A stretch of DNA of 32,000 nt from Candidatus Saccharimonadota bacterium (GTDB lineage Bacteria; Patescibacteriota; Gracilibacteria; UBA4473), in assembly GCA_963677105.1 (NCBI GenBank), contig OY781871.1, positions 900,001 through 932,000 of the forward strand, written 5' to 3'. Below, piece after piece: positions 3,717-32,000 of this stretch (positions within the stretch are counted from its first letter, which is position 1; every line of letters starts with the position of its first letter). The position numbers and the translations under genes are program-made. The notes under the pieces were generated by a model. The model worked only from the letters and a program-made list of their open reading frames with translations. It did no database searches and was not told where the DNA came from.

Positions 3717-3745
3717 TTTACAAAATTTTTATACTTCTGTAAACT
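3717..3745 (+). promoter_or_regulatory. sigma70-like promoter for the YtxH-like gene
   Basis: TTTACA (3717-3722), 17-nt spacer, TAAACT (3740-3745), about 23 nt upstream of ATG 3769. Confidence 0.35.
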
Positions 3746-3768
3746 CAAGTTACTTGATTCTTTTTCAA

Positions 3769-4239
3769 ATGAAACATTTATTTAAATTTCTATTTTCGGC
3801 ATCACTTGGTGCAATGTATGGCTTATTTTTTGCTCAAAAGTCTGGGAAGAAGTTGCGAGACGATTTAAAAAAATCAAAAACTCCTGGAAAAAAATTATTA
3901 AACGAACTCAAAGAGGTGGCTTCAGAGAGTGGAAAAGAAGCATCTGATTGGGCAGAGAATTCAGAAGAATTACAAAAACTACTTAACGAAGCTCGTACGT
4001 ATTTTGATTCGCTCGTTGAAAAATCAAAAGATGTTTCTACTGCTGCAACAGGACGAGTAGAAGATGAATTTTTAGAGTTAAGTGAAAAAGCAGCAGAGGC
4101 GGCAAAAAGATTGAAAAAATCTGCAACGCAAAAAACGGTTAAATTTAAAAATGAGTTGGAAAAAGAAGTAAAAACCATTGCAAAGAAAACTATTGCAAAG
4201 AAAGCTGTTGCGAAAAAGAAAGTGAAAAAAGAAAAATAG
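3769..4239 (+). CDS. YtxH-like protein (N-terminal membrane helix plus Lys/Glu-rich coiled region)
   Basis: MKHLFKFLFSASLGAMYGLFFAQKSGKKLRDDLKK matches the YtxH pattern (G..G.LFAPKSG...R..L). The ORF-track start at 3709 is a GTG with an implausible 20-aa extension. Confidence 0.6.
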   Translation: MKHLFKFLFSASLGAMYGLFFAQKSGKKLRDDLKKSKTPGKKLLNELKEVASESGKEASDWAENSEELQKLLNEARTYFDSLVEKSKDVSTAATGRVEDEFLELSEKAAEAAKRLKKSATQKTVKFKNELEKEVKTIAKKTIAKKAVAKKKVKKEK

Positions 4240-4355: not shown

Positions 4356-6545
4356 ATGACACAGAAAAAAGAAACATTCGAAGAGATTTTAAAACGACAT
4401 GGATTCCAATATGTTTTGGCTTGCAGTGTTTTGTTTTACGTTATTGGAACAATTATATTTAATATCTACTTTCGAAAATTGGGAAGTTTTGAATTTGATC
4501 TTTTGCAATTGCGATACATGTTTGTAGGAATTGCCTTTGTTTTGATTACATCTATTTTTCCTTTATTTATTTGGGCAGTATATGGAATTGTTCAATTAAT
4601 TCGTGGACCAGAACCAGAACCGACTCAGCGGTTGACGCCAATGCAGAAAGCAAAAATTACACGAGCAAAAAATGAAAAAAAAGCGCGTATTATGGGACGT
4701 TGGAAAATAGCATTTTTTATTTTTCTTCCTCTCTGGTTGGCGGCCTATTCATGGTTTGTGTTTCCAGCTCTTCCAAGTGGATTTGGTGGGGCAAAACCAT
4801 ATGCAGCTCGTTTGATTGGTACAGAAGAGGCAATTCGAAAAATAAATGATCAGATTGCCTTTGAGGCGGGAGTTCAGAGTGAAAAATTACCATTTGAATT
4901 TTTACCAGGAGTTTCTGGACTTACAACAGGAGCTAATGTTTTAATTCTCGATAAAAGTGATTCGCGTATTTTTCTGTTATTGACTCGTGATTTATATCTT
5001 TCTTCTACGTCCAGTTTTGCAAAAAAAATGTTGGCACTTGGGAAAATTGCTGATGATGTAGAGACAACAGACACGGAAACATTTCAAATAAAACCATTAA
5101 TTGTAAGTGCAGATGGAATTGATGGAATTACGTTAAGTTTGTATCAACCACCAGAAGTTACGACAACAGAAGATTTACAATTAGCAGCAGAGATTGTGGC
5201 GTCAGATCCAAAAAGAGCACAAGAAGTTTCAGATGCTATTTCTGAAGATTTTCCAGGAGTGGGAGAAAAAATTGTTGCGGCCGTTCAAAAGCATCAACAA
5301 GAAAATCCTATTGTGAAGCCGACAATAAATAAACCAGTTGTAGTAGAACCAGAAATTTCATTGGAAGATGTTATTACGGAAGTTATTGAAGACTCTGTAG
5401 ATACTACTTTTTTAGATTTTAGAGCTCGTTCATTTACAATGGCAACATCTTTGATGGAGCACGAAAGACGTTCTGGAATAAATTCTGAACGACGACGTTT
5501 ATTAATTCAATCTGTAACAGAAGACTTTAAGAAAGATTTTCCTAAAGCTTGGGCAGAGTTAGATCCAACACAAAACTTTTTAGTTATTGGACAATCCGAT
5601 CCTTATTTTCCAATAAAAATAAAAGAAGCTTTTCGTGGAGCAGAAAATGCAACAATGGTTATGAATCGATTGAACTCTACACCTAAAACGGAAGAAAATC
5701 CTTTTACAGAAGTGCGAGAAGGAGCAAGGGATTTATTAGAAAATTCTGTGCAAACAAATACTCAGGGAAATCGTGAATTTGTAGCGCAAACATTACGGAA
5801 CTACTTTAATAATCAAGCGCCACGGCAGAGAGAGTTTTGGTCTGGTGGATATATGGATTCCGGAATTTCTCATGAAAAATTTTTTGAAAATTTAACAACT
5901 GCTTTTGTGGAACCAAGTGATTGGGAATCATTCAAAACACTACTTGCAACATTTGAAGAAGAAATGAATGCGACCTGTGAAGATGGAATTCTAAACCAAG
6001 ACGAAACAGGAATAGATTGTGGAGGAGAAATCTGTGAAGCATGTGAAGTTACAGAACCAGAAGTAGTTGAAACCTGTGAAGATGGAATTCTAAATCAAGA
6101 CGAAACAGGAATAGATTGTGGAGGAGAAATCTGTGAAGCATGTGAAGTTACAGAACCAGAAGTAGTTGAAACCTGTGAAGACGGAATTCAAAATCAAGAC
6201 GAAACAGAAATAGATTGTGGAGGAGAAATCTGTGAAGCATGTGAAGTTACAGAACCAGAAGTAGTTGAAACCTGTGAAGATGGAATTCTAAACCAAGACG
6301 AAACAGAAATAGATTGTGGAGGAGAAATCTGTGAAGCATGTGAAGTTACAGAACCAGAAGTAGTTGAAACCTGTGAAGATGGAATTCTAAACCAAGACGA
6401 AACAGAAATAGATTGTGGAGGAGAAATCTGTGAAGCATGTGAAGTTACAGAACCAGAAGTAGTTGAAACCTGCGAAGACGGAATTCAAAATCAAGACGAA
6501 ACAGGAATTGATTGTGGAGGAAGTTGTTCGGTTGCGTGTGAATAA
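4356..6545 (+). CDS. membrane-anchored protein with an unknown extracytoplasmic region and C-terminal tandem 33-aa Cys-rich repeats
   Basis: 729-aa ORF with about 3 N-terminal hydrophobic helices (VLACSVLFYVIGTIIF, FVGIAFVLITSIFPLFIWAVYGIV, IAFFIFLPLWLAAYSWFVF). A ~400-aa region of unknown function follows, then 5.75 copies of TCEDGI(L/Q)NQDET(G/E)IDCGGEICEACEVTEPEVVE. Confidence 0.8.
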   Translation: MTQKKETFEEILKRHGFQYVLACSVLFYVIGTIIFNIYFRKLGSFEFDLLQLRYMFVGIAFVLITSIFPLFIWAVYGIVQLIRGPEPEPTQRLTPMQKAKITRAKNEKKARIMGRWKIAFFIFLPLWLAAYSWFVFPALPSGFGGAKPYAARLIGTEEAIRKINDQIAFEAGVQSEKLPFEFLPGVSGLTTGANVLILDKSDSRIFLLLTRDLYLSSTSSFAKKMLALGKIADDVETTDTETFQIKPLIVSADGIDGITLSLYQPPEVTTTEDLQLAAEIVASDPKRAQEVSDAISEDFPGVGEKIVAAVQKHQQENPIVKPTINKPVVVEPEISLEDVITEVIEDSVDTTFLDFRARSFTMATSLMEHERRSGINSERRRLLIQSVTEDFKKDFPKAWAELDPTQNFLVIGQSDPYFPIKIKEAFRGAENATMVMNRLNSTPKTEENPFTEVREGARDLLENSVQTNTQGNREFVAQTLRNYFNNQAPRQREFWSGGYMDSGISHEKFFENLTTAFVEPSDWESFKTLLATFEEEMNATCEDGILNQDETGIDCGGEICEACEVTEPEVVETCEDGILNQDETGIDCGGEICEACEVTEPEVVETCEDGIQNQDETEIDCGGEICEACEVTEPEVVETCEDGILNQDETEIDCGGEICEACEVTEPEVVETCEDGILNQDETEIDCGGEICEACEVTEPEVVETCEDGIQNQDETGIDCGGSCSVACE
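5973..6542 (+). repeat. in-frame 99-bp tandem repeat (5 full units plus 1 truncated terminal unit)
   Basis: Units start at 5973, 6072, 6171, 6270, 6369 and 6468. Units 4 and 5 are identical. Among units 1-5, differences fall only in codons 4, 7, 9 and 13, and the last ~60 nt of each unit are identical. Confidence 0.95.
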
Positions 6546-24846: not shown

Positions 24847-25092
24847 ATGCCAAATTTTGACAAAACGGGACCGGCAGGAGAAGGAGTTGCTACAGGAAGG
24901 GGATGGGGTTCTTGTATTGAGAATCAACAAGGAAATACCATGAATTATGGTTGCGGAGGTTGTAGAAAAGGAGGAAGGGGTTTTAGAAATAGACAAGGAA
25001 TTGTTTCACTGGATGATCAAGAACAAGTTTTAGAAAAAAGGCTTGCAGAAGTTCGTGCTGCAAAAAAATTAAATTCAAAGAAGGATGCCTAG
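24847..25092 (+). CDS. DUF5320-family small Gly/Cys-rich protein
   Basis: N-terminus MPNFDKTGPAGEGVATGRGWGSC matches the DUF5320 pattern (MP..D.TGP.G.GP.TGRG.G.C). The C-terminal part is a coiled helix. The ORF overlaps the next gene by 8 nt. Confidence 0.65.
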   Translation: MPNFDKTGPAGEGVATGRGWGSCIENQQGNTMNYGCGGCRKGGRGFRNRQGIVSLDDQEQVLEKRLAEVRAAKKLNSKKDA

Positions 25093-25360
25093 ACCTCGAT
25101 TGAGAAGAAGAATGGAATTAGATCCACGTGTGACTTTTTATAAGCCACAAGGAATTCCATTGCAAAATTTGAGTGCTATAGAATTGACGCATGAAGAGTG
25201 GGAATCATTGCGATTGAGAAATGTTGAGGAATTGGATCAGCATAAATCAGCCGAAAAAATGAATACTTCTCAAAGTACTTTTCAACGAATCTATTCAAGT
25301 GCTCAAAAAAAAATAGGAACAGCAATTGTGAAAGGAATGGCTATCAGAATTATTAAATAA
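25085..25360 (+). CDS. DUF134 (UPF0251) predicted DNA-binding protein
   Basis: MPRPRLRRRMELDPRVTFYKPQGIP....L...E.E.LRL....L.Q..AA.KM..S..TF.R....A..K matches the DUF134 consensus (MPRP.K.R.V...P....FKP.GIP) with a sigma-70 region-4-like HTH. Confidence 0.75.
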   Translation: MPRPRLRRRMELDPRVTFYKPQGIPLQNLSAIELTHEEWESLRLRNVEELDQHKSAEKMNTSQSTFQRIYSSAQKKIGTAIVKGMAIRIIK

Positions 25361-25380: not shown

Positions 25381-27429
25381 TTACTTCTTTTGTTTTTTCA
25401 TCAATTCTTCTGGATCGGTAGTGATAATTTGATCTTCTTCAGGAGAAGCAACAATTTGAATTGCTACATGTTGGTTTCCAGCGAAAAATAATCCTTGTCC
25501 AATTTTTGAATTTAATAACAGAGAAGTTTCTTGTTCGGTGAGATCAAATACTTTCTTTAGTCGTTCAGTAGCAACGGGAGCTTGTCGCAATAAAAGTTGT
25601 AATGACGAGTTGGTAATAATTGGTTTTCCCCATGGAGAATCCAAGAAATCTTCCACATCCTGTGTAATAGTTGTTACTCCAAGATAATATTTACGAGCAC
25701 GTTTCACGAGTCCATGAAGGAATCGTCCAGAATCTTCGTGTTGAACAATATTCCAAGCCTCATCAACGATGAGAAGTCGACGTTTTAGTTCTGATCGCAC
25801 TTTATTCCAAATAAAATTCAAAAGAATATACATTGAGATTGGACGAAGTTGGTCTTCTAGGTCTCGAATACAAAACGTTACGAGTCCAGATTCAAGATTT
25901 ACATTTGTTTGATCAGAGAAAAGTCCAGAAAAAGTTCCTTCGGTAAATCGTTCTAGTCGTACCGCAAGTTCGTTTCCACCTTCGAGAGATTCTAAAACAT
26001 TTTTCAAATCTTTCATTGTTGGCATTTCCAACTCATGAGGTTTTTCTGTATCAGGTGTAATTCCTTTCAATTCATATGATTGTAAAATTGCACGATCCAT
26101 AAGTCCTTGTTCGATCGGAGATAACGTTCCAAGCATCAAATTCATCAATCCAGATAAATTAATCGCCGCTTCACGAAGTGATTCTCCAGGTTTTTCTTCT
26201 TTTGAAAATGTAGCGGGAAGATCGAAAGGATTAATTCGTTGATCTGAATTCAATGAAATATTGATATACGTTCCACCAATTGTTTTTGTCAGAGTTTCAT
26301 ACTCATTTTCAGGATCAAGAATAATTACATCCGTTCCCATCATAATTGAACGTAATGCATCCAGTTTCACCGCGTACGATTTACCAGCACCAGATTTCGC
26401 AAACACAACTTGGTTTGCATTTTCCATTTTAAATCTATCAAAAATGATTAACGAATTATTGTGTCGATTCAGTCCGTACATAATTCCTTCATCCGAAGTA
26501 AGATCACAAGAAACAAAGGGAAAAGTCGAAGAAAGGGGAGCGGTATTCATGTTTTGTACCACATCAAGCATGTCAGTTGCTTGCGGTAAGGTTGATTCAA
26601 ACGCACGTTCTGTTTGAAAATCTCCAGAACGAACCATCACCATCTGACTTCCGAGCAAAGTTTCAAGTTGTTTGCAAACGGTATCTAATTTTTCAGGATC
26701 CTCAGCATATACAGTGAAATAAAGTCCAACTTGGAAAAATCGTTCTTCTCCACGTTGTAAATCAACACGTAATTGTTCTGCGTCTTCAAGAGCTGTATCG
26801 AGTGCAGTATCGTTAATTGATCCGCGTTTAGAATTAATACTTTTAGTAGAAAGCATTTCTGCTACTTTCTTTCGCAATATTTTTAGCATTTTGTCTGATT
26901 TTGTTGGATATATAAACATTGAAATATCCATCGTTACATCAAAATTTATGATTGGGTTCAGCCAGTTTGCATCGAGAAATCGAGGATAATTAAATACAAA
27001 AAAGCTTTTTGTATATACGCCATTCAATTTAAATTCTTTTGATTTTATCTCTACAGAAGTTGGTGCCACAAGATCTTTTATTGATGAAATTCCATGTTGA
27101 TAGACTTTTTCTGCAGCAATAATTTGGCTTCTCATTTTTTTCGTAAGCTTTTTCTTGTCTTTTTTCGGATCAAAAGATTCAAAGAGATTTCTTACTTCAT
27201 CACTATCTTCAATGATTGTTGCAACACTTGGATCTTCTGGCGCTTCTTCAATTGTACTTTCTTTTCCTTCAGTTTTTGTTTTTGATGCATTTTTTGCGGC
27301 AATTGCTTTGTTTTTTTCAACATGAGCTTGCCATTTTCCTTTCAGTTTTTCGAGCACTCCATGTTCAGGAGTACCTTTTGTTTCTGTATTTTCAAACGTA
27401 ATTTTTCCGGTTGTTTGTTTGTCTGGCAT
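25381..27429 (-). CDS. VirB4/TraC/TrsE-like (DUF87-type) type IV secretion ATPase
   Basis: Walker A FAKSGAGKSY and Walker B RRLLIVDEAW. The N-terminal domain has the FFVFNYPRFLDANWLNPIINFDVTMDISMFIYP pattern seen in Gram-positive VirB4 homologues (PrgJ/TrsE type). The start is set at MPDKQ (27429) because ATG 27474 lies upstream of the predicted -10 box. Confidence 0.8.
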   Translation of the reverse strand: MPDKQTTGKITFENTETKGTPEHGVLEKLKGKWQAHVEKNKAIAAKNASKTKTEGKESTIEEAPEDPSVATIIEDSDEVRNLFESFDPKKDKKKLTKKMRSQIIAAEKVYQHGISSIKDLVAPTSVEIKSKEFKLNGVYTKSFFVFNYPRFLDANWLNPIINFDVTMDISMFIYPTKSDKMLKILRKKVAEMLSTKSINSKRGSINDTALDTALEDAEQLRVDLQRGEERFFQVGLYFTVYAEDPEKLDTVCKQLETLLGSQMVMVRSGDFQTERAFESTLPQATDMLDVVQNMNTAPLSSTFPFVSCDLTSDEGIMYGLNRHNNSLIIFDRFKMENANQVVFAKSGAGKSYAVKLDALRSIMMGTDVIILDPENEYETLTKTIGGTYINISLNSDQRINPFDLPATFSKEEKPGESLREAAINLSGLMNLMLGTLSPIEQGLMDRAILQSYELKGITPDTEKPHELEMPTMKDLKNVLESLEGGNELAVRLERFTEGTFSGLFSDQTNVNLESGLVTFCIRDLEDQLRPISMYILLNFIWNKVRSELKRRLLIVDEAWNIVQHEDSGRFLHGLVKRARKYYLGVTTITQDVEDFLDSPWGKPIITNSSLQLLLRQAPVATERLKKVFDLTEQETSLLLNSKIGQGLFFAGNQHVAIQIVASPEEDQIITTDPEELMKKQKK

Positions 27430-27453
27430 TTTTAAGTGATCAGCAATCTGTGA

Positions 27454-27482
27454 ATTATACCTTAAAACAGGCAATAAATCAA
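27454..27482 (-). promoter_or_regulatory. near-consensus sigma70 promoter for the VirB4-like gene
   Basis: On the minus strand: TTGATT (27482-27477), 17-nt spacer, TATAAT (27459-27454), 24 nt upstream of ATG 27429. Confidence 0.6.
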
Positions 27483-27539
27483 CTAAAATCCCCTAAAGTT
27501 TAAACTATAATCATCACTTTTGAAATTATAAATTGAGGT

Positions 27540-27899
27540 ACAAAAAAGCATGTCCGGTTTTTCACATCGTAGAGAGGTGACGAACATGCTTATATTTGGC
27601 TCCCATACAGTCCCCGTTAGATATTTTTAAGAGTGTCTAACGCACTCAGTTTATGTGTTTTTGTTTTAGTTGAATTTTTCTCTTTTGTTTGTGAAAGGGA
27701 AAAACAGGTTTTTTCTATAGAGATAGAAGTTCTCTGTCTTTCACTCGGAGTTTCAATTGCTTGAAACGGGGAGAGGAAGGCAGGGAGCTAGTCCGACTTC
27801 GATCTCCTACTGTTTTTTCAAAATTAATAAATTTGGGTGTCGGGAGTTCAAATTCGGGCGAATCACTGCCTTCTTTGGGATGATGTTGTCGAAGAACGA
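27540..27899. ncRNA. candidate structured non-coding RNA locus of unknown class; possibly convergent overlapping transcripts
   Basis: No credible ORF. The region contains a compound hairpin at 27546-27591, a hairpin at 27631-27647, a three-way junction at 27691-27744, a perfect 7-bp hairpin at 27750-27767 and a GC-rich hairpin at 27770-27807. A promoter-like element and a T-tract terminator are present on each strand. The strand is unresolved. Confidence 0.4.
27770..27818 (+). terminator. plus-strand intrinsic terminator with no upstream plus-strand gene
   Basis: GGAGA (27770-27774) pairs with TCTCC (27803-27807), GAAG (27776-27779) with CTTC (27797-27800), and inner GG(G) with (T)CC. TAC-TGTTTTTT follows (T-run 27813-27818). 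Confidence 0.55.
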
Positions 27900-27905
27900 A
27901 AAGAC

Positions 27906-27934
27906 ATTATACCCCAGATTTCGAAAAAAAACAA
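27906..27934 (-). promoter_or_regulatory. orphan minus-strand sigma70-like promoter pointing into the non-coding region
   Basis: On the minus strand: TTGTTT (27934-27929), 17-nt spacer, TATAAT (27911-27906). The next minus-strand signal is the hairpin at 27591-27546 followed by TTTTTT. Confidence 0.45.
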
Positions 27935-27975
27935 GAGCGAAATTGACTTTTTGCGTTAAATTGTTTAAACGTAAC

Positions 27976-29100
27976 ATGATGGAACGAAAAGAGGGGATTT
28001 CATTTTACAGGAATATAGATGGACTGGGAGTTATTCAGTCTTTGGCACAATCAGTGGTAGATTCAGTAAAACGAATTATTTCTCCTCCAGAGGAAGAAAT
28101 AACAAATGCCTCAAAGGAAGTGCTGGAGAATGCGATTGAAAAATTAAAATTAGAACTTACAGCGAGTGAATATAAAGAATTACTTCATGTTATTGAAGAT
28201 ACGTATTTAAGCGATTCAAACGGTGAAATAGACATTTCAGAATTGATGAAAAATAAGATTCTTATCAATGTTCATTTTTGGGTGCAGGTTTTGCGTGATA
28301 AAAAACTTGGATCACTGGGAAGAAAATTAAAACCGTTTGATGTGGAGGAAATAGCACAAGAACCACTTGAAAATAATACGGCAGAATGGATTATTGAAAA
28401 TAGAATAGAAAATTTACCAGAATTAGAAAAACAATTTCTTCAGTGGGCGGAAGACAATAATATTCGAGAATTACTAGAAAAAGGTTCATTGCAAATAATT
28501 ACAAATCATGATCAATGGGCGACACAACAATTATCTCTTTACTTTTTTCAAAAATATTTAGGAATTCCAAAAGAAAAATCAATGACAATTATGGGACTTC
28601 GAATTGCAGCTTTCAAAAAGTTTGAATTTGATCCAGAAGAAATTGCTCGTGGGCAAGGACATGTGTATAGAACAATTCCTCCAACGAAAAATGGAAGACA
28701 TGAGTCGTTTGATTCAACATTAATTGGAAGTATGGGATTGTCTTATTTGAGAAAGTTTACTGAATTTTTAAAGACAAAGGGAAATATTTCCACGATGGCT
28801 CCAACCGGAACACGTGATAAATTTCGACAAAGAGAAGGAAATAATCGTGATATTTGTCCTGCGCATATAAGTGATCAGGTAGTGAAACTTTTAGAAAAGA
28901 TTCAATCGAAAACAACTATTATTCCTCTAGCGTTTAATCATGGAAATGGATTTCATTTAGAAAGAACACATGAAAAATTTCGAGTTGACTTGGAATGGGG
29001 TTCACCAATTGAACAAGGAGGAAAACTTTCTGGAGAAGAAATTTGGCAAAAAGTATTGGATATTATTCCCAATTACGATTCATCGCTTTTGAAAGATTAA
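27976..29100 (+). CDS. hypothetical protein (375 aa); faint glycerolipid-acyltransferase-like blocks
   Basis: Good coding composition starts at MMERKEG (27976). The ORF-track start at 27757 adds 73 residues rich in R/G/F/C that overlap the hairpin region. MAPTGTRDK and TTIIPLAF resemble acyltransferase blocks III and IV, but the HX4D block is not intact (NHDQWAT). Confidence 0.6.
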   Translation: MMERKEGISFYRNIDGLGVIQSLAQSVVDSVKRIISPPEEEITNASKEVLENAIEKLKLELTASEYKELLHVIEDTYLSDSNGEIDISELMKNKILINVHFWVQVLRDKKLGSLGRKLKPFDVEEIAQEPLENNTAEWIIENRIENLPELEKQFLQWAEDNNIRELLEKGSLQIITNHDQWATQQLSLYFFQKYLGIPKEKSMTIMGLRIAAFKKFEFDPEEIARGQGHVYRTIPPTKNGRHESFDSTLIGSMGLSYLRKFTEFLKTKGNISTMAPTGTRDKFRQREGNNRDICPAHISDQVVKLLEKIQSKTTIIPLAFNHGNGFHLERTHEKFRVDLEWGSPIEQGGKLSGEEIWQKVLDIIPNYDSSLLKD

Positions 29101-30049: not shown

Positions 30050-30084
30050 GACAGAGCGTCATTCTTGTTCTACACTGCGCACGA

Positions 30085-32000
30085 ATGATCTACGCTCAAA
30101 TATACCTCCGAAGCGTACGCGATACGTACACGTGGCACAGTGAAAATCCTGTGCGTCTAGGAGCGCGTGTTTCATTGAAATTTCGAGGACGACCACGAAC
30201 GGGGATTGTTATTTCCATTTCAGAGAAAAAACCAGAGTTCAAAACACAACCGATTGATGAAATTTGGGATGAACAATTCATTCCAGAAACATGGATAAAA
30301 TTAGCTCACTGGATTGCTGAGCAAAACTTTACCAACATTTCAAATGTGATGAGCTTGGTGATTCCTGAGAAATTTCTTCTCCAACGAGATCCTGTTGCAC
30401 GTGAGAAGTTTTGGAGTTTAACCGGAAATGAGTTTGAGAAATTGAGAGGAGTGAAACAAAAATTAGTGATTGAGCGATTGCTTCAATCAGAGGCGACAGA
30501 TTCGGAATTGCGTGAGTTGGCAAGTCCAACTGTTTTAAAAAATTTAGCAGAAAAAGAGATTATAACCTTTCGTCTTGGAGAAATTGTTCCAGCTGCGCAG
30601 CCTGATTTTACGCGTCCGACACATAATTTATCTCTTGCACAACAAGAAATATTTGAGAACATTTCTAAATCAAAAAAGCCGTGTTTGCTCTGGGGAGTTA
30701 CGGGTTCTGGAAAAACAGAAATTTATAAAAAGTTGGCGGAAAAAGTTATTTCTGCCGGAAAACAAGTACTTATTTTATTGCCAGAAATTGCACTGACGCC
30801 ACAACTTATTGCAGAATTTCGTTCAGTTGGTTCGGTTGCCGTTTGGCACTCAAAACTCTCAGAAGGAGAACGAGTTCAAGAATGGGCAAGATGTGCTTCT
30901 GGAGAAGCTCAGATTTTAATTGGAGCGAGAAGTGCAGCCTTGATTCCGTTGCCAAATGTAAAGCTTATTGTTTTGGACGAAGAACATGAATGGACGTTTA
31001 AATCAGAAACAGCACCACGATTGTGGACACATGATGTAGCAGAATGGCTGAGTTTTATGTTACAAACAAAACTTGTATTTGGTTCAGCAACACCGCGATT
31101 AGAAAGTTGGATGCGTTGTGAAAAAGGGGAGTGGAATCGTTGTGATTTGAGGGAACGAGTAAACGAAACAGAATTACCCAAGATTCAGTTTGTCGATATG
31201 AGAAATGAAGTGAAATTTGGGAATTATGGACCGATTTCTTCTTATTTAGCAGAAGCCATTGGAGAAACCGTTGACGCTGGAAAACAAGTAGTTTTATTTC
31301 TCAATCGTCGAGGATTTTCGGGGTCTACAACGTGTCGTATGTGTGGAGAAACCCATAATTGTCCGTACTGTGATGTTCCCATGAAATTGCATAGAAATGG
31401 AGCAAATTCACGAATGATCTGTCATGTATGTGGACATTTAGCGCCGTTTACAGATCGATGTCCAAATTGCGATGCAGAAGATTTTGTATTTCGTGGATGG
31501 GGAACACAACAAGTAGAACACGAATTGAAAGAAAATTTTCCAGGACTTCGTGTGCTGCGCGCGGATGCAGATTCAGTAGGAGGAAAACACGATTTTCGAA
31601 AGCTCTGCGATAGGTTTTCTGCGCATGAAGCAGATGTTCTTTTGGGAACACAAATGGTGGCGAAAGGATTAGATTTTGAAAAAGTAGCACTCGTTGGAGT
31701 TATTCTCGCAGATGTTGGATTATCGCTTCCTGATTTTCGTTCAGAAGAACGAGCGTTTCAGTTACTAACACAAGTTTCTGGACGCGCTGGAAGAAGAAAA
31801 ACGCAGGGAAATATTCTCATTCAAACTTTTAAACCAGATGAAAAAGTATTCTCGTTCGTAAAAAAACACGACACGGGAGGATTTCTCGATTGGCAAAAAA
31901 CAGCCCGTTCTTCCACAGGATTGCCTCCGTTTGGAGCGATTGCGAAAATAGGATTTTCAAATGAAGATAAAAAAGTTTCGTTCCAATTGGCACAAGATCT
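30085..32000 (+). CDS. priA: primosomal protein N' (replication restart helicase PriA), 3' end beyond the window
   Basis: Frame 1 is open from ATG 30085 to the window edge; it is not in the ORF track because there is no stop inside the window. Walker A GVTGSGKTE, LDEEH box, Cys-rich zinc region CRMCGETHNCPYC...CHVCGH...CPNC, and motif VI QVSGRAGR. Confidence 0.9.
   Translation, partial: MIYAQIYLRSVRDTYTWHSENPVRLGARVSLKFRGRPRTGIVISISEKKPEFKTQPIDEIWDEQFIPETWIKLAHWIAEQNFTNISNVMSLVIPEKFLLQRDPVAREKFWSLTGNEFEKLRGVKQKLVIERLLQSEATDSELRELASPTVLKNLAEKEIITFRLGEIVPAAQPDFTRPTHNLSLAQQEIFENISKSKKPCLLWGVTGSGKTEIYKKLAEKVISAGKQVLILLPEIALTPQLIAEFRSVGSVAVWHSKLSEGERVQEWARCASGEAQILIGARSAALIPLPNVKLIVLDEEHEWTFKSETAPRLWTHDVAEWLSFMLQTKLVFGSATPRLESWMRCEKGEWNRCDLRERVNETELPKIQFVDMRNEVKFGNYGPISSYLAEAIGETVDAGKQVVLFLNRRGFSGSTTCRMCGETHNCPYCDVPMKLHRNGANSRMICHVCGHLAPFTDRCPNCDAEDFVFRGWGTQQVEHELKENFPGLRVLRADADSVGGKHDFRKLCDRFSAHEADVLLGTQMVAKGLDFEKVALVGVILADVGLSLPDFRSEERAFQLLTQVSGRAGRRKTQGNILIQTFKPDEKVFSFVKKHDTGGFLDWQKTARSSTGLPPFGAIAKIGFSNEDKKVSFQLAQD

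Follow-up and report, generated by a model that had tools for sequence, protein, structure and literature searches.

A putative structured non-coding RNA gene upstream of virB4-like genes in one sub-lineage of Patescibacteria

The window analysed here, a stretch of 32,000 nucleotides (nt) from contig OY781871.1 (GenBank assembly GCA_963677105.1, Candidatus Saccharimonadota bacterium), belongs to an AT-rich (about 35% G+C) Patescibacteria genome with the standard genetic code, and its closest public relatives carry the labels Candidatus Peribacteria, Gracilibacteria or Peregrinibacteria. Between the start of a gene for a VirB4-like ATPase (27429, minus strand) and that of a divergent gene for a 374-amino-acid (aa) protein (27976, plus strand) lies a gap of 546 base pairs (bp), positions 27430-27975; no other part of the window free of genes and known RNAs is as long. 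We consider it likely that this gap holds an independent minus-strand gene for a structured non-coding RNA of ~355 nt, which we infer to act in trans. Judged by its sequence, the element constitutes a new RNA family within the general kind of orphan structured non-coding RNA genes, known so far from one Patescibacteria sub-lineage; it is bracketed by a minus-strand promoter and terminator, its proposed fold covaries and it matches no Rfam family.

An initial annotation of the window had singled out this gap as its longest non-coding one and as a candidate locus for a novel structured or antisense RNA, and the first half of that proposal is borne out. The two flanking starts agree with identical database entries, the 682-aa entry P0009 over its full length for the VirB4-like protein (whose ATGCCAGACAAACAAAC start and first codons are also kept in relatives) and the 374-aa entry P0001 for its neighbour. 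The other long gaps of the window are occupied by tRNAs. The region 30052-32000 on the plus strand looks non-coding because it is absent from the list of the open reading frame (ORF) tool; it holds an ORF that stays open for at least 649 codons, runs past the window end and is PriA-like by synteny with loci L084 and L088. The ORFs within the gap (candidates of 56, 43 and 34 aa) match no protein family and, as read from the alignments on either strand, are disrupted in relatives by a frameshift or the loss of the start codon, which indicates that the element is not protein-coding.

Distribution, transcription signals and strand

The element is present in 13 distinct loci, the window included, with homology over its full length (profile nhmmer E-values of 1e-39 to 1e-95). 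A single-sequence nhmmer search that took in 80 genomic VirB4 loci returned one homologous gap only (L001, E 1.7e-11); extra loci were drawn from contigs with homologues of the 374-aa neighbour and from the contigs of five more VirB4 homologues, and a profile search added L002, L003, L164 and L129, then L210 and L214. The window forms a close group with L081, L082, L084, L086, L088 and L089 (VirB4 86-88% identical), while L210 (82%), L001 and L164 (72-73%) and L002, L214 and L003 (66-67%) stand farther away. All carriers are Peribacteria- or "Gracilibacteria"-labelled genomes of one uncultured Patescibacteria sub-lineage, and the synteny is the same in 13/13: read in the direction of virB4, hrcA comes first, then the element, and virB4 follows directly in the same orientation as the element.

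Co-occurrence with VirB4, which the initial annotation had put forward as a check, proved to hold in one direction. Every copy of the RNA sits beside virB4, but the other 77 genomic VirB4 loci yielded no copy (VirB4 at most 63% identical, most upstream gaps <200 bp), and none was found upstream of virB4 in L211-L213 (69-76%), in which the gaps measure 88-234 bp and hrcA is not adjacent. Viral contigs, plasmids and phages contained no match. Among 93 sources searched, a covariance model (R1) built on the 5' domain detected nothing beyond the 13 loci, and the profile hidden Markov model found nothing further in all fetched loci, including the 120 loci, mostly chance matches, that had been collected by scanning metagenomes for the pattern of the invariant block CTCCYTGCCTTCCTCTCC.

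The signals that frame the element on the minus strand are the following.

27934-27906, minus strand: promoter of the RNA gene, -35 box TTGTTT at 27934-27929, 17-nt spacer, -10 box TATAAT at 27911-27906
27899-27542, minus strand: transcribed region of the structured RNA, ~355 nt, with its putative 5' end placed from the -10 box and its 3' end at the U-run of the terminator
27591-27542, minus strand: intrinsic terminator, a compound hairpin (27591-27546) with an 11-bp outer stem and an inner UCAC/GUGA stem, and U6 at 27547-27542
27579-27571, minus strand: conserved CACCUCUCU at the tip of the terminator hairpin
27482-27454, minus strand: separate virB4 promoter TTGATT-N17-TATAAT, downstream of the terminator, also returned by the consensus scan

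All three signals had been read from the window in the initial annotation, and all three are conserved in relatives. The geometry of the RNA promoter is identical in 13/13 loci, always with N17 spacing, while its boxes vary (TTGAAA, TTGATT, TTGTGT, TTGCAT or TTGCTT at -35; TAGAAT, TACAAT, TATAAT or TAGGAT at -10, mostly as an extended -10 with TGn). The terminator hairpin has a predicted free energy of -11 to -19.5 kcal/mol and a U4-8 tail in every lineage, and in a ten-sequence alignment (A4, see below) its stem shows 99% pairing, with both partners changed in 7 of 11 pairs. The virB4 promoter is kept in all relatives, L001 too (TTGCAA-N17-TACAAT). A conserved -35/-10 pair with a spacer within 16-18 nt together with a conserved hairpin and U-tract is what a stand-alone RNA gene should display, and it is from these signals that we infer transcription.

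The element is assigned to the minus strand because the promoter is kept, the terminator covaries and non-canonical pairs are distributed asymmetrically: the 756 pair cells contain 62 G.U against 22 A.C when read as minus-strand RNA. A U.G pair in the P2 domain of L002, L214 and L003 is compatible with a minus-strand RNA only, and the closing pair of pseudoknot stem S2, a G.U in 7/10 A4 sequences, fits the same strand.

A second, plus-strand transcript overlapping the first had also been proposed, on the analogy of the prgQ/prgX region of pCF10, so that two convergent transcripts born in the gap would form an antisense switch beside a type IV secretion system gene. This we regard as highly improbable. 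The motifs themselves are there, a TATAAT at 27506-27511 and a GC-rich hairpin followed by the T-run TGTTTTTT at 27770-27819, and the region folds better than shuffled sequences whichever strand is taken (z = -3.9 and -4.2). Between invariant blocks, the plus strand can also form a hairpin of 15 bp, 4 of them G.U. The TATAAT, however, has no -35 box and lies in an unconserved spacer, and the consensus scan returned neither it nor the hairpin. The supposed terminator has a loop of 27 nt and is the complement of P2 and its apical loop, where the T-run falls; L001 lacks that loop, and L164, L002, L214 and L003 have a different one. Likewise the GC-rich plus-strand patches once taken to mark a structured RNA are the complement of the invariant block of the minus-strand RNA, and good folding of both strands is expected of any helix-rich RNA gene, whereas the G.U/A.C asymmetry points to the minus strand. 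Two facing conserved promoters were not found. The resemblance to prgQ/prgX thus comes down to a non-coding region beside a conjugation-type gene; the element differs in having conserved signals on one strand, divergent flanking promoters and a chromosomal, syntenic location instead of a plasmid one.

The complements of the invariant blocks (GUUCUCUGUCUUUC and GGAAGGCAGGGAGC) that can form the plus-strand hairpin lie at 27729-27788; read on the minus strand, the same pairing contains A.C mismatches. It was through this G.U-rich hairpin that RNAalifold, run on two sequences, favoured a plus-strand RNA, a candidate dropped once 10-13 sequences were compared and their promoters, terminators and G.U/A.C asymmetry all indicated the minus strand.

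Fold, covariation and constraint

The 13 loci share a proposed multi-helix fold. A long-range helix, P1, closes it; within P1 come the three hairpin domains P2, P3 and P4, and an A-rich linker then leads to an H-type pseudoknot. The parts are listed from 5' to 3'.

27897-27877, minus strand: 5' strand of P1 (GUUCUU 27897-27892, UCCC 27880-27877), pairing with 27614-27599
27873-27776, minus strand: compound P2 domain, outer stem GAAGGCAG 27873-27866 with CUGCCUUC 27783-27776
27857-27843 with 27807-27793, minus strand: inner stems of P2, closed by a 35-nt apical loop at 27842-27808
27788-27770, minus strand: near-invariant block GCUCCCUGCCUUCCUCUCC, comprising the P2 3' strand and the pyrimidine-rich junction
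27775-27768, minus strand: junction after P2, invariant CUCUCC then two more C
27767-27750, minus strand: P3 hairpin GUUUCAA-GCAA-UUGAAAC, expansion site 1
27744-27691, minus strand: P4 domain (GUGAAAG/CUUUCAC and ACAG/CUGU) with an inner hairpin at 27728-27713, expansion site 2
27739-27732, minus strand: invariant AGACAGAG in the P4 loop
27690-27648, minus strand: A-rich single-stranded linker with the conserved AAACAAAAACA motif at about 27667-27656
27647-27616, minus strand: H-type pseudoknot, stem S1 GAGUG 27647-27643 with CACUC 27635-27631
27641-27636 with 27621-27616, minus strand: pseudoknot stem S2, GUUAGA with UCUAAC, and an A-rich 9-nt loop 3 at 27630-27622
27614-27599, minus strand: 3' strand of P1 (GGGA 27614-27611, GGGAGC 27604-27599)

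Two alignments carry the covariation evidence. In A4, which comprises 10 sequences and 77 proposed pairs including the pseudoknot, 92.5% of the cells show standard pairing versus 34-47% when the 3' partners are slid by 1-3 columns, and 26/77 pairs are changed on both sides versus 3-8 in the slid controls and 8.2+-2.0 in shuffles, none of 500 of which reaches 26. In A7, built from 13 sequences with the covariance model R1 and covering 30 pairs of the 5' domain, the corresponding values are 90.1% paired against 35-52% in the control, with both-side changes in 14/30 pairs. Conservation and covariation in relatives, the lack of which would have weakened the proposal according to the initial annotation, are thus those expected of a conserved structured RNA, as measured on 13 sequences of one clade with a shuffle statistic that ignores kinship.

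The individual helices contribute unequally. In P2, pairing reaches 95-96% in the outer stem and 87-95% in the inner one, and both partners have changed in 4-7 pairs; the hairpin of P3 is kept while its sequence differs from lineage to lineage, 6/7 pairs having changed on both sides. The stem of P4 occurs as GUGAAAG/CUUUCAC, GAGAAAG/CUUUCUC, GAGAG/CUCUC and GAAAGA/UCUUUC, and its pair count in A4 is an understatement since MAFFT misaligns the P4 3' strand of L001 and L164. P1 amounts to 17 bp in L001 and outdoes shuffles in L001, L164, L002, L214 and L003 (helix 1 of A4 is 100% paired, with 3 double changes), and its 3' strand lies 8-10 nt before the terminator.

The pseudoknot is compact, with 1 nt between the 5' strands of S1 and S2 and none between the S2 5' strand and the S1 3' strand. 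All pairs of both stems (S1 5/5, S2 6/6) are 100% paired in the 10 sequences, and both-side changes affect 5/6 pairs of S2 and 1 pair of S1; the S2 5' strand reads GUUAGA, GUCAGA, GCCACC or GUCGCC, and GAAAAUC in L002. Two resemblances of this region were considered and set aside. In the window only, the pseudoknot sequence GAGTGCGTTAGACACTC (27631-27647) resembles overlapping half-sites TTAGCACTC/GAGTGCTAA of CIRCE, the operator of HrcA; hrcA lies nearby, but the arms covary in relatives and the likeness is probably due to chance. A preQ1-I-like pseudoknot was rejected as well, as conserved ligand-pocket nucleotides and an Rfam match are both missing.

Unpaired segments are conserved along with the helices. 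The block GCUCCCUGCCUUCCUCUCC is identical in 10/13 loci and has 1 change in L001, and the AAACAAAAACA motif was found in 13/13. Block C (GAAAGACAG) resembles the P2 5' strand (GAAGGCAG), so that an alternative pairing with block B is conceivable; both blocks are invariant. Constraint on the gene as a whole exceeds that on its surroundings: in close relatives, DNA identity to the window is 88.8-90.2% for the RNA, 80.5-82.7% for virB4, 76.5-82.2% for hrcA and 65.6-68.8% for the neighbour gene.

Size varies through insertions that only some close relatives carry. L082 (2626-2810) and L084 (4460-4580) have an insert of ~110 nt at the P3 tip, made of ~8-nt AGTT.. / ACTTTT repeats that would form a long A-U helix, and L082, L088 and L089 have ~120 nt inserted in the P4 loop, with two or three hairpins. 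In L002 (~5300-5420), L214 (~3740-3860) and L003 (~5650-5780), the copies that have diverged most, an extra GGCAGGUGAGUCCG-hairpin-CGAACCC domain stands between pseudoknot and terminator.

The many inverted repeats, and the position next to a conjugation-type ATPase gene, could also be those of a DNA-level element (an origin, a transfer origin or an array of protein-binding sites), or the gap could encode a small protein, with no RNA involved in either case. We take both to be extremely unlikely: neither DnaA boxes nor a skew switch were found, which also disposes of a replication origin as a candidate; plasmids, phages and viral contigs gave no match; the interleaved pairings of the pseudoknot with their G.U pairs, inside a promoter/terminator frame, speak for RNA; and the short ORFs are not conserved and their products match no family.

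Comparison with known RNAs and possible function

At gathering thresholds, Rfam 15 recognised tRNAs only, in the window and in 10 homologous loci. Permissive scans of the copies from the window, L001 and L214 gave chance-level matches to eukaryotic microRNA, small nucleolar RNA and similar models (11-20 bits, E 0.7-9) and, at E <= 10, none to RNase P RNA, transfer-messenger RNA (tmRNA), signal recognition particle (SRP) RNA or 6S RNA, and ARAGORN finds no tmRNA in the window. Our literature searches on non-coding RNAs turned up no published RNA peculiar to this lineage of the candidate phyla radiation (CPR). A hammerhead core was discarded as a candidate, CUGAUGAG being present in L088 only.

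A very diverged universal RNA might nevertheless escape the Rfam models. The length of 330-380 nt, the closing helix joining 5' and 3' ends, the pseudoknot, the variable and expandable helices and the conservation above that of neighbouring genes would all suit RNase P RNA or tmRNA, and 10/35 CPR RNase P RNAs fall below Rfam cut-offs (Lui et al. 2021, PMC8172020). As CPR RNase P RNAs can be missed in this way, the fold was inspected by eye for their features. It contains no P4-type long-range helix with the AGGAAAGUCC and ACAGAA-CCGGCUUA core, none of the conserved RNase P nucleotides and no layout into S-domain and C-domain, and presents three hairpins and one local pseudoknot instead of the P1-P4/P7-P12/P15 architecture. 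P1 (GYUCUU/GGGAGC) lacks the G3.U70 pair of tmRNA, and a T-arm, an encoded CCA and a tag frame are missing; nor does the multi-branch junction offer the central bubble of 6S RNA or the GNRA-closed helix-8 motif of SRP RNA. With the hallmarks missing on inspection and the scans negative, in agreement with the initial annotation, a diverged universal RNA appears very unlikely.

Our best guess for the element is a structural RNA that acts in trans and is bound by protein, with a possible link to virB4. It would act in trans as a folded molecule, probably in complex with protein, as the scaffold or ligand of a ribonucleoprotein in the manner of OLE, raiA or ROOL. The invariant unpaired blocks would be candidate contact surfaces: CUCUCC, which follows P2; AGACAGAG of the P4 loop; the AAACAAAAACA motif of the linker; and, at the terminator tip, CACCUCU. 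Four observations recommend this reading: a base-pairing small RNA (sRNA) would need a far simpler fold, scaffold-like RNAs typically carry expansion segments at the tips of their helices, the terminator is strong without a competing antiterminator, and virB4 keeps a conserved promoter of its own downstream. Independence from the plus-strand neighbour follows from L001, which keeps the RNA without that gene, and independence from virB4 is argued by the conserved virB4 promoter after the terminator and the lack of an antiterminator partner. The fixed position directly upstream of virB4 hints at a functional link to that machinery, although it may also reflect mere synteny. The bacteria of this CPR lineage have tiny genomes and keep little dispensable DNA, and as episymbionts they are thought to depend on the secretion and DNA-transfer machinery to which the VirB4-like ATPase belongs.

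Several points weigh against this interpretation. The trans-acting, ribonucleoprotein mechanism is argued by analogy, and the invariable placement upstream of virB4 on the same strand fits a cis role too. Both ends of the RNA and its expression are deduced from sequence signals. The 13 loci come from one narrow clade, seven of them being close relatives, and the covariation derives mainly from six diverged sequences (L210, L001, L164, L002, L214 and L003), with a shuffle control that takes no account of kinship. In the AT-rich group P1 is weak and its register ambiguous, the 3' ends of L002, L214 and L003 differ (an extra hairpin and another P1, ACUCACC/GGUGAGU), and L003 apparently lacks pseudoknot stem 1.

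The cis role would be that of a virB4 leader resembling an attenuator or riboswitch, its terminator stopping transcription unless a sensed signal permits read-through. Such leaders, of which T-box and cobalamin elements are examples, share with the element a P1-closed domain, a terminator within about 10 nt and a co-oriented downstream gene, and T-box leaders contain a pseudoknot too; the RNA is directly upstream of virB4 and co-oriented with it in 13/13 loci, and the 8-10 nt from the P1 3' strand to the terminator correspond to the usual arrangement of aptamer and expression platform. Yet a well-conserved virB4 promoter intervenes between terminator and gene, no T-box or riboswitch signature was found, and there is no evident antiterminator: the strongest pairing that the 5' arm of the terminator could form upstream instead reaches -5 to -8 kcal/mol, against the -11 to -19.5 kcal/mol of the hairpin. 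Moreover, the VirB4 orthologues of L211-L213 manage with short gaps devoid of the RNA, and a sensor of 330-600 nt with variable expansions would be of unusual size. We therefore judge the leader to be improbable.

We place an sRNA that acts by base pairing at the same low level of likelihood. Here exposed pyrimidine segments, CUCUCCCC after P2 and CACCUCUCU in the terminator, would seed on purine-rich sites of mRNAs, and the element does have two unpaired, invariant segments rich in C and U, as well as a promoter of its own and a terminator; the terminator-loop motif resembles the 3' tail of 16S rRNA (GAUCACCUCC), which counts in favour. The Shine-Dalgarno complement of such a seed is scarce, however: no clear core precedes any of 25 gene starts checked in the window, the nearest approaches being GAGGA before 1348-1953 and AAGGA/GAAGG before 25085-25360. 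An anti-Shine-Dalgarno-like seed would thus have no obvious target class, and masking of ribosome-binding sites by CACCUCU is unlikely. Part of the motif (UCAC) is in any case paired within the hairpin, and at least 7 covarying helices, a pseudoknot and expansions exceed what such sRNAs need.

Among known systems, the trans-acting structural RNA that we favour has its closest counterparts in OLE, the raiA motif RNA, ROOL, GOLLD and HEARO. Like these, the element is a stand-alone gene of several hundred nt with many covarying helices including a pseudoknot, conserved unpaired blocks, a lineage-restricted distribution, a characteristic neighbourhood and helical expansions. It differs from them in having no Rfam 15 match to any of them, in its Patescibacteria host and in its hrcA ... 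RNA, virB4 neighbourhood; OLE, ROOL and GOLLD are also larger than the element, which measures about 330-380 nt without expansions. A more far-reaching version, in which the RNA would be the founding member of a new lineage-specific class of large, complex-folded RNAs and would work, in functional coupling with the VirB4-like ATPase, as a dedicated ribonucleoprotein or catalytic RNA instead of a generic sRNA, is unlikely on present evidence. Large bacterial RNAs with intricate covariation-supported folds are, to our knowledge, few, and each eventually led to unexpected biochemistry. An RNA that in close relatives outconserves its neighbour genes and is tied by position to a VirB4-like ATPase offers a testable entry to the lineage-specific RNA biology of uncultured episymbionts, for which the 13 loci supply the seed alignment of a new RNA family; should it turn out to be just another orphan sRNA, the gain would be limited to annotation.

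Neighbouring genes

The features on either side of the RNA gene are the following.

25381-27429, minus strand: gene for the VirB4-like conjugal-transfer-type ATPase, directly downstream of the RNA gene on the same strand
27943-27948 and 27966-27971, plus strand: candidate promoter of the 374-aa gene (TTGACT, N17, TAAACG), outside the RNA gene
27976-29100, plus strand: divergent neighbour gene for the 374-aa protein, outside the RNA

The VirB4-like protein scores 370.6 bits with NCBIfam NF045971 (CD1110 family), the cut-off being 325, and matches P-loop_TraG, AAA_10 and DUF87 of Pfam. Just past the 3' end of its gene lies a DUF5320 and DUF134 gene pair (24847-25360, plus strand), which is near virB4 also in L210 (7494-8148).

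The 374-aa gene most likely has its own divergent promoter, which would place its start at the tandem ATGATG. Since this promoter is outside the RNA gene, the promoters of RNA and neighbour stand back to back and are not convergent. The protein has no Pfam or NCBIfam match; its AlphaFold model (mean predicted local distance difference test score, pLDDT, of 65) finds 1IUQ, 1K30 and 8IA1 in Foldseek with E-values of 4e-7 to 6e-6, and the predicted fold resembles the soluble plastid-type glycerol-3-phosphate acyltransferases. An NHDxW motif is invariant and an APxGTRD motif conserved, with only R and D invariant and A, P, G and T as majority residues. The protein evolves very fast, at 40-55% aa identity where VirB4 and HrcA show 82-88%, and its positional orthologues are barely recognisable in L164, L210, L214 and L002. 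In L003 the gene is replaced by an 860-aa ORF that resembles a P-type ATPase by eye only, and in L001 it is missing and hrcA abuts the RNA promoter. A tie between the RNA and this gene was rejected as a candidate: L001 has the RNA without the gene, and the gene product looks acyltransferase-like.

Several genes of the window have a -10-like box (TATACT, TATAAT or TAGAAT) only 5-10 nt before the ATG, which suggests that leaderless mRNAs or mRNAs with very short leaders are widespread in this genome.

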